Shown: positions 12,321-18,507, numbered from the stretch's first letter. The stretch is DNA of 64,000 bases from Escherichia coli (GCF_030013205.1 NZ_CP122648.1), one strand, 5' to 3'. Made by a program: numbers and translations. Notes: a model not told the origin generated them from the sequence alone.

Positions 12321-12560
12321 CCATTCAGGATGAGGCGATAAGCTTCATCCTGATATTCTTGCTTCAGTTGCGGTCCAGTTAATCATTCTAAATAACAACT
12401 GCTGAAATTATACGAATTTCGGTATGTATTTTAATTTATAACGATAATGTTATTTTTATTTTCTGCAATGAACGTCACAAATAATTGTCGTTTAAGTTAA
12501 ATTTATTTCAAATGATAATAAATATCAGTTCACTTATAATTTCTTGCTTTGTGATTTTAA

Positions 12561-12574
12561 TTGATAACGATCAA
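12561..12574. promoter_or_regulatory. FNR binding site upstream of ydhY
   Basis: Perfect FNR consensus TTGATAACGATCAA (TTGAT-N4-ATCAA) in the AT-rich region upstream of ydhY; the ydhYVWXUT operon is reported to be FNR-activated. Confidence 0.65.
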
Positions 12575-12776
12575 TGTTAAGAGCTCAGAATAATCACATT
12601 ATTTTTTTCTCCTAACCATAAAGGATTAGTTTATCAGCGTTAAGTTTTTTCTCATACACTATCGGGTTAGGGAAAATATCTGGTGTTGGGGACAGAGTCA
12701 GCAGCGTATTAGTTGAATGCTTAATATCAGTCTGCTGAATTGTCAGCACTGTGTTTGCGAAGAGGATGCGAAATAA

Positions 12777-13403
12777 ATGAACCCGGTTGATCGTCCACTA
12801 TTAGATATTGGCTTAACGCGATTAGAATTCTTGCGTATATCAGGAAAAGGCCTTGCTGGTTTAACAATTGCCCCTGCGTTACTGTCACTTTTGGGTTGCA
12901 AACAGGAAGATATTGATAGCGGCACAGTAGGGTTGATAAATACACCCAAAGGGGTGCTGGTGACCCAACGTGCTCGATGCACGGGTTGCCACCGCTGTGA
13001 AATCTCTTGTACCAACTTCAACGATGGCTCAGTAGGGACATTCTTCTCCCGTATCAAAATCCATCGCAATTATTTCTTTGGCGACAACGGGGTTGGCTCT
13101 GGCGGCGGCCTGTATGGCGATCTCAACTATACCGCGGACACCTGCCGTCAATGCAAAGAGCCGCAATGCATGAACGTCTGCCCGATTGGTGCGATTACCT
13201 GGCAGCAGAAAGAAGGGTGTATTACCGTCGATCATAAACGTTGTATTGGCTGTAGCGCCTGTACTACGGCATGCCCGTGGATGATGGCCACCGTAAATGC
13301 CGAAAGTAAAAAATCCTCGAAATGTGTGTTATGCGGTGAATGCGCAAACGCCTGCCCAACAGGGGCGTTAAAAATTATCGAGTGGAAAGATATTACTGTG
13401 TGA
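12777..13403 (+). CDS. ydhY: ferredoxin-like protein YdhY with four 4Fe-4S CxxCxxCxxxCP motifs
   Basis: 208 aa; the four Cys motifs are visible in the translation. Confidence 0.9.
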   Translation: MNPVDRPLLDIGLTRLEFLRISGKGLAGLTIAPALLSLLGCKQEDIDSGTVGLINTPKGVLVTQRARCTGCHRCEISCTNFNDGSVGTFFSRIKIHRNYFFGDNGVGSGGGLYGDLNYTADTCRQCKEPQCMNVCPIGAITWQQKEGCITVDHKRCIGCSACTTACPWMMATVNAESKKSSKCVLCGECANACPTGALKIIEWKDITV

Positions 13404-13423
13404 ATCTTGCAAAGGAAAAAATC

Positions 13424-16177: not shown

Positions 16178-16240
16178 AATTTCAGGGAGATGTCATGGAT
16201 AGGGTGGACAGTTGCAGCCACTGCATTAGGGGATAATCAG

Positions 16241-16909
16241 ATGTCCTTCACTCGACGCAAATTTGTTCTGGGGATGGGAACAGTAATCTTTTTTACTGGT
16301 TCTGCGTCTTCTCTGTTAGCGAACACGAGGCAAGAAAAGGAAGTTCGGTATGCCATGATTCATGACGAGTCACGGTGCAATGGCTGTAATATTTGCGCCC
16401 GCGCATGCCGTAAAACTAACCACGTCCCCGCTCAGGGAAGCCGTTTATCGATAGCACACATTCCAGTCACCGATAACGACAACGAAACGCAGTATCACTA
16501 TTTTCGCCAGTCATGCCAGCACTGTGAAGATGCTCCTTGCATCGATGTTTGCCCGACAGGGGCGTCGTGGCGTGATGAGCAGGGGATCGTGCGGGTAGAA
16601 AAATCGCAGTGCATCGGCTGCAGTTATTGCATTGGCGCTTGCCCGTACCAGGTTCGCTACCTTAACCCTGTCACTAAAGTGGCAGATAAATGTGATTTCT
16701 GCGCTGAGTCCCGACTGGCAAAAGGCTTTCCGCCCATTTGCGTCAGCGCCTGCCCGGAACACGCCTTGATCTTTGGTCGCGAAGATAGCCCAGAAATTCA
16801 GGCGTGGTTGCAGGAAAATAAATACTATCAATATCAGCTACCTGGTGCCGGGAAACCGCATCTGTATCGCCGATTCGGTCAACATTTGATTAAAAAGGAA
16901 AATGTATGA
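16241..16909 (+). CDS. ydhX: Tat-exported 4Fe-4S ferredoxin-type subunit YdhX
   Basis: Internal start MSFTRRKFVLGMG carries a twin-arginine motif; several CxxCxxCxxxCP motifs; 222 aa. Confidence 0.88.
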   Translation: MSFTRRKFVLGMGTVIFFTGSASSLLANTRQEKEVRYAMIHDESRCNGCNICARACRKTNHVPAQGSRLSIAHIPVTDNDNETQYHYFRQSCQHCEDAPCIDVCPTGASWRDEQGIVRVEKSQCIGCSYCIGACPYQVRYLNPVTKVADKCDFCAESRLAKGFPPICVSACPEHALIFGREDSPEIQAWLQENKYYQYQLPGAGKPHLYRRFGQHLIKKENV

Positions 16910-17691
16910 ACCCGTCGCAACATGCTGAACAGTTTCAGAGCCTGTTGGCGAACTATGTGCCACAGTTCACTCCCGAATTTTGGCCGGTGTGGTTGATCAT
17001 TGCCGGACTATTGCTGGTTGGGATGTGCTTGGTGCTGGGGCTGCATGCCTTGCTTCGTGCTCGTGGCGTGAAGAAATCAGCCACCGATCATGGTGAGAAG
17101 ATTTATCTTTACAGCAAAGCGGTCAGATTATGGCACTGGTCGAATGCGTTACTCTTTGTATTGTTGCTGGCAAGTGGGCTGATAAATCACTTTGCGCTGG
17201 TGGGCGCAACTGCGGTTAAAAGTCTGGTTGCGGTGCATGAAGTTTGCGGATTTTTGTTACTGGCATGCTGGCTTGGCTTTGTTCTGATCAATGCCGTTGG
17301 GGGTAATGGTCACCACTATCGCATTCGTCGTCAGGGTTGGCTGGAGCGAGCGGCAAAACAAACGCGATTTTATTTGTTTGGTATTATGCAGGGGGAAGAA
17401 CATCCTTTCCCGGCAACAACACAGTCTAAATTTAATCCCTTACAGCAGGTCGCCTATGTTGGTGTCATGTATGGATTGCTGCCGTTGTTACTATTGACGG
17501 GGCTGCTGTGTCTCTATCCGCAAGCCGTGGGAGATGTGTTTCCTGGCGTAAGATACTGGTTATTGCAGGCGCATTTTGCTCTGGCATTTATAAGCCTCTT
17601 TTTTATCTTCGGTCATCTTTATCTTTGCACCACGGGGCGTACGCCACACGAAACCTTTAAAAGCATGGTCGATGGCTATCACCGGCACTAA
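16906..17691 (+). CDS. ydhU: PhsC/NrfD-like integral-membrane cytochrome b-type subunit YdhU
   Basis: 261 aa, hydrophobic; 4-nt overlap with ydhX. Confidence 0.88.
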   Translation: MNPSQHAEQFQSLLANYVPQFTPEFWPVWLIIAGLLLVGMCLVLGLHALLRARGVKKSATDHGEKIYLYSKAVRLWHWSNALLFVLLLASGLINHFALVGATAVKSLVAVHEVCGFLLLACWLGFVLINAVGGNGHHYRIRRQGWLERAAKQTRFYLFGIMQGEEHPFPATTQSKFNPLQQVAYVGVMYGLLPLLLLTGLLCLYPQAVGDVFPGVRYWLLQAHFALAFISLFFIFGHLYLCTTGRTPHETFKSMVDGYHRH

Positions 17692-17694
17692 CGA

Positions 17695-18507
17695 ATGATC
17701 ATTACACGAGCAGACCTGCGAGAATGGCGTATCGGAGCGGTGATGTATCGCTGGTTCCTGCGCCATTTCCCACGCGGCGGTAGTTATGCCGATATTCATC
17801 ATGCACTGATTGAGGAAGGATATACGGACTGGGCGGAGAGTCTGGTTGAGTATGCGTGGAAAAAATGGCTGGCGGATGAAAACTTCGCGCATCAGGAAGT
17901 TTCCTCTATGCAAAAATTGGCCACAGATCCCGGAGAGAGAGCATTTTGTAGTCAGTTTGCCCGCAGCGACGATCATGCTCGCATCGGCTGTTGTGACGAT
18001 AACGCCAGAATCGCAACCGCTGGGTATGCTGCACAAATTGCCAGTATGGGTTATAGCGTGCGGATTGGAAGTGTCGGCTTTAACAGTCACATTGGCAGCT
18101 CCGGTGAGCGTGCACGGGTTGCTGTAACCGGCAATTCTTCGCGGATAAGCAGCGCTGGAGATAGTAGTCGGATTGCGAATACCGGAATGCGAGTACGCGT
18201 TTGTACATTGGGTGAACGGTGTCATGTCGCCAGTAATGGTGACCTGGTGCAAATCGCCAGCTTTGGCGCAAACGCCAGAATTGCCAACAGCGGCGACAAT
18301 GTATACATCATTGCCAGCGGTGAAGATTCAACAGTAGTGAGCACGGGCGTGGTCGACTCAATTATTCTCGGGCCAGGGGGAAGCGCCGCACTGGCATATC
18401 ATGACGGCGAAAGAGTTCGCTTCGCCGTCGCCATTGAAGGTGAAAACAATATTCGAGCCGGAGTCCGCTATCGCCTTAATGAACAGCATCAGTTTGTTGA
18501 GTGCTGA
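17695..18507 (+). CDS. ydhT: uncharacterised protein YdhT with internal degenerate short repeats
   Basis: 270 aa; repeats of the type ARIA/SRIS/VRIG with about 13-aa spacing in the central region. Confidence 0.85.
   Translation: MIITRADLREWRIGAVMYRWFLRHFPRGGSYADIHHALIEEGYTDWAESLVEYAWKKWLADENFAHQEVSSMQKLATDPGERAFCSQFARSDDHARIGCCDDNARIATAGYAAQIASMGYSVRIGSVGFNSHIGSSGERARVAVTGNSSRISSAGDSSRIANTGMRVRVCTLGERCHVASNGDLVQIASFGANARIANSGDNVYIIASGEDSTVVSTGVVDSIILGPGGSAALAYHDGERVRFAVAIEGENNIRAGVRYRLNEQHQFVEC

Follow-up and report, generated by a model that had tools for sequence, protein, structure and literature searches.

This study examined the ydhYVWXUT operon of Escherichia coli, which encodes a redox enzyme system with a catalytic subunit of the AOR family, in a 64,000-nucleotide stretch of DNA (GCF_030013205.1, NZ_CP122648.1; hereafter the window, with positions counted from its first letter). 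A first-pass annotation of the window had described a six-gene operon here, and the operon is real: all six open reading frames (ORFs) are present on the plus strand at the positions it gave. ORF calling places ydhY at 12777-13403, ydhX at 16241-16909, ydhU at 16906-17691, and ydhT at 17695-18507. The ydhV gene occupies 13424-15526 from its annotated start (MANGW), the mechanical ORF beginning at 13340, and ydhW occupies 15530-16177, its start in the Prokaryotic Genome Annotation Pipeline (PGAP) record of an identical strain being 15539. From ydhY to ydhT, the intergenic gaps are 20, 3, 63, -4, and 3 nt, and the G+C content of the operon is 50%. The locus is not new; it is an E. coli operon that was already annotated, and the comparative points presented here are modest additions.

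The operon DNA is 100% identical to that of E. coli O139:H1 W13-16, from wild boar, and to porcine enterotoxigenic E. coli (ETEC) chromosomes. Of 5426 complete E. coli genomes, 5393 have the operon, and just 20 of the 5426 matching records reach at least 99% identity over it. Relative to K-12 (b1674-b1669), nucleotide identity is about 98% and protein identity is 97-100%, with one to six amino acid changes per protein. The two operons share the six genes, their order, the flanking genes fumD and ydhS, and an identical FNR box; their leaders differ by two 1-nt length changes. The window segment is an orthologue of the K-12 operon from a different lineage, not K-12 sequence. The whole 64-kb window likely shares the O139:H1/porcine ETEC identity. 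Synonymous/non-synonymous codon differences from K-12 were 7/1 in ydhY, 42/1 in ydhV, 7/6 in ydhW, 8/2 in ydhX, 8/6 in ydhU, and 12/5 in ydhT. The ratios in ydhV and ydhY indicate strong purifying selection; by these counts, the constraint on YdhY, YdhV, and YdhX is much stronger than that on YdhW, YdhU, and YdhT.

A scan of one genome per species yielded 70 loci. The genes ydhY, ydhV, and ydhW stand together in that order in Enterobacterales, Cetobacterium (Fusobacteriota), many Clostridia, Halanaerobium, and Oribacterium; in a metagenome-assembled genome of Desulfobacteraceae, ydhW lies several kb upstream. In the species scan, ydhX, ydhU, and ydhT were found in Enterobacterales alone (Escherichia, Citrobacter, Leminorella, Limnobaculum, Budvicia, Proteus, Serratia, Symbiopectobacterium, and Brenneria). 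Outside this order, the usual arrangement is ydhY (its product with a twin-arginine motif), ydhV, ydhW, FdhD, and TatC, and genes for MoeA and a tungstate transporter lie close by. The only carrier of ydhX and ydhU beyond Enterobacterales is a metagenomic contig of unplaced taxon (L073), which reads FdhD-Y-V-W-X-U-MoeA, without ydhT; other contigs bearing YdhW contain Y-V-W alone, Y-V-W-MoeA, or W-Y-V. The spread of Y-V-W across phyla and the confinement of X-U to Enterobacterales and L073 indicate that Y-V-W is an ancient unit and X-U a later add-on, a quinol module; ydhT arrived later still, or was lost in L073. The earlier term "six-gene module" hides a composite origin, with an ancient Y-V-W unit, an X-U add-on, and a YdhT with phage relatives. 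A described counterpart from Class V, CsWOR41 of Cetobacterium somerae (PMC13328260), has the same trio of ferredoxin, AOR-family protein, and YdhW-family protein in the same order (58-59%, 42-45%, and 31-35% identity, respectively); its operon continues with FdhD and/or TatC, has tungstate transporter and MoeA genes nearby, and contains no ydhX, ydhU, or ydhT. Some enterobacterial loci are irregular. The assembly of Citrobacter sp. NCU1 contains two diverged operon copies on separate contigs (L023 and L040), whose YdhV proteins are 86% and 93% identical to that of the window; the more diverged copy has a ydhT fragment only, and the duplication may reflect a true paralogue or a mixed assembly. 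Apparently eroded operons were seen in Symbiopectobacterium (L064; partial X, U, and T) and in Brenneria izbisi (L068; only Y and V fragments).

The domain and motif calls made earlier for three of the proteins hold: YdhY is a ferredoxin with motifs for four [4Fe-4S] clusters, YdhV is a member of the aldehyde:ferredoxin oxidoreductase (AFOR) family, and YdhX is a ferredoxin with a twin-arginine translocation (Tat) motif, RRKFVLG. YdhV matches AFOR_N (PF02730, 1.3e-67) and AFOR_C (PF01314, 6.3e-48) in Pfam, has no signal peptide, and has AOR, FOR, and BamB as its nearest solved structures. None of 69 orthologues departs from the motif C307-x2-C310-x3-C314 or from C558; by analogy, these four residues probably ligate a [4Fe-4S] cluster beside the pterin. 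Cys336 is likewise invariant in the 69 orthologues, and it has been described as a BamB-like protein ligand to the metal in an enzyme without the second-shell residues of AOR (PMC12096430). YdhV carries a redox-active bis-molybdopterin molybdenum cofactor (bis-Mo-MPT), and the purified protein was without a functional [4Fe-4S] cluster; neither a substrate nor a chaperone for the molybdenum cofactor (Moco) was identified (PMC9103625). The literature to June 2026 assigns no substrate, as the first-pass annotation had supposed. A June 2026 classification of tungsten-containing oxidoreductases (WOR) places YdhV in Class V, clade 41, and names E. coli Ydh as a member (PMC13328260). The components of that class, YdhV, YdhY, YdhW, YdhX, and the cytochrome b YdhU, are all present in the window. 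In the same report, the Cetobacterium catalytic (L) subunit acted on none of 46 aldehydes, and E. coli YdhV preferred Mo, whereas the Cetobacterium enzyme preferred W (PMC13328260). The BamB-like Cys ligand, the lack of AOR second-shell residues, and the inactivity of the Cetobacterium subunit suggest that YdhV is not an aldehyde oxidase. BamB itself shares with YdhV the AOR-family fold (E 2.3e-44), the Cys ligand, and the absence of aldehyde-oxidase second-shell residues (PMC12096430); it differs in being cytoplasmic, in using W and a CoA ester substrate, in having BamC-I as partners, and in lacking a Tat signal, a cytochrome b, and a YdhW. YdhV is the only AOR-family molybdoenzyme of E. coli and the first enzyme shown to have a bis-Mo-MPT cofactor.

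The X-U add-on has the features of a quinol module. YdhX contains four [4Fe-4S] Cys motifs (Fer4_11, 6.8e-22), YdhX and YdhY have 16 to 18 Cys each, and the best NCBIfam match of YdhX is to NrfC (248 bits, below the cut-off), making it NrfC/TtrB-like. The N-terminus of YdhX, MSFTRRKFVLG, has the motif T4-R-R-K-F-V-L followed by GMGTVIFFTGSASSLLA, which fits a Tat signal; the arginine pair is kept in all intact orthologues, and YdhX is among predicted Tat substrates (PMC7549933). YdhU was earlier called PhsC/NrfD-like, of which the first half stands: PF01292 (cytochrome b561/Ni_hydr_CYTB, 7e-31) is its sole Pfam match at E <= 0.01, and no match was obtained to NrfD, which belongs to an unrelated anchor family. 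Hydropathy indicates five hydrophobic segments; all 48 orthologues share His77 and His111, and 46 of them also have His223 and His237. YdhU is a PhsC-type haem-b membrane anchor and the presumed quinol/quinone site. In a genome-wide screen, transposon insertions in ydhU were predicted to raise fitness under 10 of 12 chemical stresses (PMC5064937). The match of YdhU to NCBIfam NF011582, "thiosulfate reductase cytochrome B subunit", is strong (456 bits versus a cut-off of 204), and the automatic name of ydhU is phsC; with the sub-threshold matches of YdhX and YdhY to NrfC, TtrB, and DsrO, this could point to a reductase of sulfur compounds of the thiosulfate, polysulfide, or tetrathionate type. 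Such a function appears highly unlikely, in that the name is carried over from the anchor subunit alone, the operon has no PhsA, PhsB, or other catalytic subunit with Mo-bis-molybdopterin guanine dinucleotide (Mo-bis-MGD), the YdhV family is unrelated to these, and no sulfur phenotype was found in the accessible literature. PhsABC, DmsABC, NrfCD, and HybOABC resemble Ydh in their Tat export, in their control by FNR/NarL, and in having a membrane anchor on which a four-cluster ferredoxin docks. Ydh differs from the three-part molybdoenzymes in its AOR-family bis-MPT catalytic subunit, which is not of the Mo-bis-MGD family, in its two four-cluster ferredoxins in series, and in its haem-b anchor, which is not of the NrfD type.

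The operon is preceded by an AT-rich leader (12321-12776, plus strand; 32% G+C versus 50% in the operon), which contains the promoter and a 5' untranslated region (UTR) of about 167 nt. Between the stop codon of fumD and the ATG of ydhY, the leader measures 456 bp, one more than the 455 bp first given. Directly upstream lies fumD (ydhZ; 12111-12320, plus strand), identified by a DUF2767 match and followed by a terminator-like hairpin (12325-12353, plus strand; a 12-bp stem with a T-rich tail) that bounds the ydh control region on its upstream side; linkage of fumD to the operon is confined to Escherichia and Citrobacter. As noted in the first-pass annotation, the leader carries a perfect FNR box, TTGATAACGATCAA (12561-12574, plus strand), which occurs once in the window, with 0 expected from shuffles, and is the sole perfect TTGAT-N4-ATCAA in the 64 kb. 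FNR control is supported by published data: the operon has an FNR chromatin immunoprecipitation (ChIP) peak with a site at -42.5 (class II) and is activated by FNR (PMC3688515). The half-sites are perfect in all examined Escherichia and Citrobacter loci, 162-248 nt before the ATG, and degenerate in Proteus and Brenneria. The -42.5 spacing (PMC3688515) and the sequence suggest CATTAT (12597-12602, plus strand) as the -10 hexamer, and the same spacing would place the transcription start near 12610. A NarL/NarP-like 7-2-7 site, TAACCATAAAGGATTA (12613-12628, plus strand; two mismatches to TACYYMT-NN-AKRRGTA), overlaps this putative start, with its center at about +10.5. NarL and NarP inhibit ydhY-T expression, according to a sentence of Partridge 2008 quoted in bioRxiv 10.1101/2024.02.19.581094, and this inhibition may act through TAACCATAAAGGATTA. 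In vitro, the sigma-S holoenzyme showed a preference for this promoter (PMC3141248). The leader gives no reason to propose a riboswitch or an attenuator: an Rfam scan of 12000-19000 gave no match at E <= 1, and the 5' UTR folds no better than shuffles (z = -0.42). A small hairpin is present at 12733-12748. In seven non-enterobacterial loci, no Moco riboswitch was found upstream of ydhY; the single Molybdenum/Tungsten (Moco) riboswitch detected lies downstream, in Clostridium polynesiense (L051, 12393-12509; 66 bits), between Y-V-W-FdhD-TatC and the tungstate transporter genes.

The regulation bears on the direction of electron flow. Nitrate-linked donor dehydrogenases are regulated otherwise than terminal reductases, as in fdnGHI versus dmsABC and frdABCD. 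The inhibition of ydhY-T by NarL/NarP is the pattern of low-priority terminal reductases, which is evidence against a reverse flow, in which YdhV would oxidize an aldehyde or another reduced compound in the periplasm and electrons would pass through YdhY, YdhX, and YdhU to quinone. This reverse direction is suggested by the aldehyde oxidation that the classification report attributes to most characterized AOR-family members (PMC13328260), and by the use of PF01292 anchors in formate dehydrogenase-N and hydrogenases, both of which YdhU matches weakly. The Cetobacterium subunit of the same class was nevertheless inactive on its 46 aldehydes (PMC13328260), and in its Cys ligand and its lack of AOR second-shell residues YdhV resembles BamB, a reductase (PMC12096430). 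Oxidation by YdhV is therefore regarded as unlikely, and reduction is preferred.

YdhY, the small subunit of the enzyme, has four Cys motifs for [4Fe-4S] clusters with 18 Cys and matches Pfam Fer4 families and NCBIfam NF007382. The Class V small (S) subunit is characterized by a twin-arginine signal and/or a transmembrane segment; at the N-terminus of YdhY, the Tat-like motif T14-R-L-E-F-L-R20 (12816-12836, plus strand), with R-L instead of a twin arginine, is followed by a hydrophobic stretch and a lipobox-like LLGC with Cys41 (12897-12899, plus strand). The motif was compared across 68 loci. In all examined loci without ydhX and ydhU, YdhY has the canonical Tat motif [ST]-R-R-[EDQ]-F-L-K, and in many of them a lipobox comes after it; the Cetobacterium small subunit, with TRR[ED]FLK, is of this kind, and E. 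coli YdhY is not. In enterobacterial loci with ydhX and ydhU, the motif is [ST]-R-L-[ED]-F-L-R in 46 of 46, and in contig L073, which also carries the two genes, it is T-R-K-E-F-L-R. Despite the loss of the second arginine, YdhY proteins with X/U partners have kept the hydrophobic stretch and an L[LF]GC lipobox; a lipobox of the form [LVI][ASTVILF][GAS]C, within a predicted lipoprotein signal, is present in all enterobacterial orthologues and in 12 of the 19 others. The strict conservation of the remainder of the motif indicates that it is still under selection.

This signal can be read in three ways: as an atypical working Tat signal, as a motif kept for a chaperone while YdhY hitch-hikes across the membrane with YdhX, or as a vestige like that of NarG. 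In NarG, a vestigial Tat motif is kept as the binding site for the chaperone NarJ. Ydh is similar in having a conserved Tat-like motif minus the arginine pair, in a respiratory molybdoenzyme with a dedicated cytoplasmic accessory protein; it differs in that YdhY retains the hydrophobic core and lipobox, and in that YdhW is a winged-helix protein and not a member of the TorD/NarJ family. If the signal were a non-exporting remnant, YdhV and YdhY would lie at the cytoplasmic face, and YdhU would bridge periplasmic YdhX and cytoplasmic YdhY. PF01292 cytochromes cross the membrane with two haems, as established for FdnI, which would permit such a bridge. A remnant of this kind would account for the replacement of the second arginine by Leu in 46 of 46 ydhX-bearing enterobacterial loci and by Lys in L073, when all examined loci without ydhX retain the pair, and for the strict conservation of the rest of the motif, as expected of a chaperone-binding site. 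It appears quite unlikely, however: a hydrophobic core and lipobox Cys in every enterobacterial YdhY would be hard to explain if the protein were cytoplasmic, a periplasmic YdhX without its catalytic partner has no obvious job, and an earlier genomic survey took the E. coli subunit as periplasmic (PMC4257093). The conservation of the hydrophobic core and of the lipobox favors export, and YdhY is probably exported in E. coli. For the catalytic pair, the description of the system as periplasm-facing in the first-pass annotation is no more than plausible, given R-L in E. coli YdhY where relatives have a twin arginine.

YdhW and YdhT had both been reported to have no recognizable domain. Local Pfam searches at E <= 10 and sequence searches of the PDB indeed gave noise only, and NCBIfam matched them to no families but their own; however, each protein has its own NCBIfam and Pfam family and a confident predicted fold, obtained by the profile searches and structure prediction that had been suggested. 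YdhW belongs to NCBIfam NF007411 and, in precomputed Pfam matches, to PF27264 (YdhW_C). An exhaustive search returned 515 representative homologues, in which conservation spans residues 37-215; the N-terminal stretch of about 35 residues lacks conservation across the family. The start of ydhW is ambiguous: the K-12 ATG at 15530 abuts an AAGGA Shine-Dalgarno-like sequence, from which the PGAP ATG at 15539 has a 9-nt spacing. An AlphaFold2 model from an 89-sequence alignment (mean pLDDT 92.7) consists of tandem winged helices (residues ~41-121 and 125-213), each with three helices followed by a beta-hairpin wing. What longer homologues add is confined to further copies of the winged helix, disordered tails, or membrane helices, with no informative fusion partner. 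A chaperone of the TorD/DmsD/NarJ type (PF02613) was rejected on the fold, which is not all-helical. A winged-helix DNA-binding regulator is disfavored on indirect grounds, as the whole family is acidic (pI 4.47 for YdhW; family median 4.65, range 4.1-6.4) and no basic surface is expected.

The best guess is that YdhW is a cytoplasmic maturation or escort factor for YdhV and YdhY. It has no signal peptide; it evolves fast, with 42% identity between E. coli and Proteus against 80% for YdhV and 78% for YdhY; its neighbors across loci are the maturation and export genes FdhD, TatC, MoeA, and Moco biosynthesis; and the literature leaves a gap for a YdhV chaperone. These four points together suggest the maturation role. 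The main rival would make YdhW a structural component of the finished enzyme, its third subunit, exported together with YdhV and YdhY. In favor of this, the ydhW gene lies directly 3' of ydhV in nearly every locus, the invariant or nearly invariant residues R134, D176, and Y140-P141 suggest a defined binding surface or ligand site, and the Cetobacterium operon was written "LSW", its third product being left open as a subunit (PMC13328260). The rival is credible but the less probable of the two, considering the missing signal peptide, the evolution much faster than that of YdhV and YdhY (also 7/6 versus 42/1 in the K-12 comparison), and the varying number of winged-helix repeats among homologues. 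In addition, for a homologue with two N-terminal membrane helices, the flanking charges are predicted to put the winged-helix part in the cytoplasm. FdhD acts with IscS in the sulfuration of the formate dehydrogenase cofactor. IscS, a cysteine desulfurase of the expression host, came through purification with the recombinant Cetobacterium L subunit, a finding that the authors deemed unrelated (PMC13328260); the FdhD gene adjoins Y-V-W in 18 of the 22 non-enterobacterial loci, and so the co-purification may not be accidental.

YdhT belongs to NCBIfam NF007410 (487 bits) and Pfam PF27195, a family found in the protein database in Enterobacterales only. It has no signal peptide. The model from a 31-sequence alignment (pLDDT 93.1) shows a five-helix N-terminal domain (1-77), about 16 nonapeptide repeats in perfect register (85-228), and a conserved C-terminal cap; the repeats are confidently predicted to fold as a beta-solenoid. 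Orthologues vary by insertions and deletions of whole repeats, and no tandem repeats were found in ydhT at the DNA level. An RTX calcium-binding roll shares the period of 9 and the beta-solenoid, but this identity was rejected because the YdhT repeat is x-x-R-I-x-S-x-G-x, without GGxGxD. Full-length homologues occur in temperate phages: gp55 of Edwardsiella phage GF-2 (33% identity, pairwise E 6e-57), annotated as "collagen-like", directly follows an N-like antiterminator (L080, 5001-6047), and "ydhT" of Komagataeibacter phage phiKX1 (31% identity, E 9e-28) directly follows an antirepressor (L081, 3947-4648). The phage proteins share the helical N-terminal domain, the nonapeptide repeats, and the C-terminal cap with YdhT and differ in repeat number; their genes lie in early regions with no redox genes near. 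YdhT also matches phrog_4433 (2e-6), and related folds occur in 13 viral models in BFVD, including a DUF7666 protein. A ydhT with 97.8% identity is present in a 23-kb record named "Escherichia phage 503046" (CP025887.1, 18751-19560), which may be a misfiled chromosomal fragment. What supports YdhT as an oxidoreductase subunit is its position in the operon only, and the full-length phage homologues make its place in the enzyme doubtful.

Taken together, the evidence makes it fairly probable that ydhYVWXUT encodes an FNR-activated, nitrate-repressed, quinol-linked periplasmic reductase, a composite of Y-V-W and X-U in which YdhW has a maturation role. FNR at -42.5 turns the operon on without oxygen, and NarL/NarP hold it down in the presence of nitrate or nitrite. 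The product is a membrane-associated AOR/WOR-family molybdenum enzyme of Class V, clade 41. Electrons would most likely pass from the menaquinol pool to the haem b of YdhU, then through YdhX, a Tat-exported ferredoxin, and YdhY to YdhV; within YdhV, they would reach the [4Fe-4S] cluster and the Cys336-ligated Mo-bis-MPT, and a non-aldehyde substrate would be reduced on the periplasmic side. Y-V-W is the ancient unit, which in other bacteria is exported by Tat, carries a lipid anchor in many cases, and has FdhD and TatC genes of its own; X-U is a PhsC/NrfC-type quinol module gained in a lineage that includes Enterobacterales. YdhW would most likely act as a cytoplasmic maturation or escort factor for YdhV and YdhY, and YdhT would be a lineage-specific accessory protein, kin to phage early proteins. 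The genes and their domains, the regulation, the cofactor, the patterns of conservation, and the predicted folds come from this analysis or from published work; we infer the direction of electron flow, the quinol coupling, what YdhW and YdhT do, and that E. coli YdhV and YdhY are periplasmic.

Several points weigh against this scheme. No substrate, activity, or phenotype has been established, so that the choice between reductase and dehydrogenase depends on regulation and active-site type. The Tat export of YdhY is uncertain, as its signal has R-L instead of a twin arginine, and YdhV brings no export signal either. In YdhY, Lys follows the lipobox Cys, and under the Lol sorting rule, Lys in this position would not favor retention in the inner membrane. 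Because X-U was possibly gained once, the correlation between the loss of the arginine pair and the presence of X-U amounts to about one evolutionary event and has little statistical weight. Finally, YdhW is unlike any known redox-enzyme maturation protein and could be a true subunit.

A bolder reading goes further; it is tentative and on balance improbable. YdhW would found a new winged-helix class of dedicated maturation or escort proteins for Tat-exported AOR-family Mo/W enzymes, and the omission of YdhW and FdhD would explain the inactivity of every YdhV-type subunit purified to date. In the enterobacterial lineage, an enzyme that ancestrally targeted itself and was anchored by lipid would have become coupled to a PhsC/NrfC-type quinol module, and YdhY would have dropped its arginine pair because the complex now crosses the membrane on the signal of YdhX. 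YdhT would be a domesticated phage early protein.

The surroundings of the operon add two observations. Upstream of pykF, a small gene, ynhH (11562-11774), is annotated in both reference records. At the downstream end, ydhT (plus strand) and ydhS (minus strand) converge at 18505-18515, with their stop codons 5 nt apart. No terminator was found between them, the nearest terminator-like hairpin on the plus strand being at 18713-18730, within ydhS; read-through antisense transcription is thus possible.

In sum, the Y-V-W core, the separable X-U module, the R-L signal of YdhY, and the doubtful subunit status of YdhT are the points that bear on the study of this enzyme class. Relatives are common in gut bacteria, and a reaction is not known for any enzyme of the class. 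If YdhW is a maturation factor, active enzyme could become obtainable and the search for the substrate could begin.

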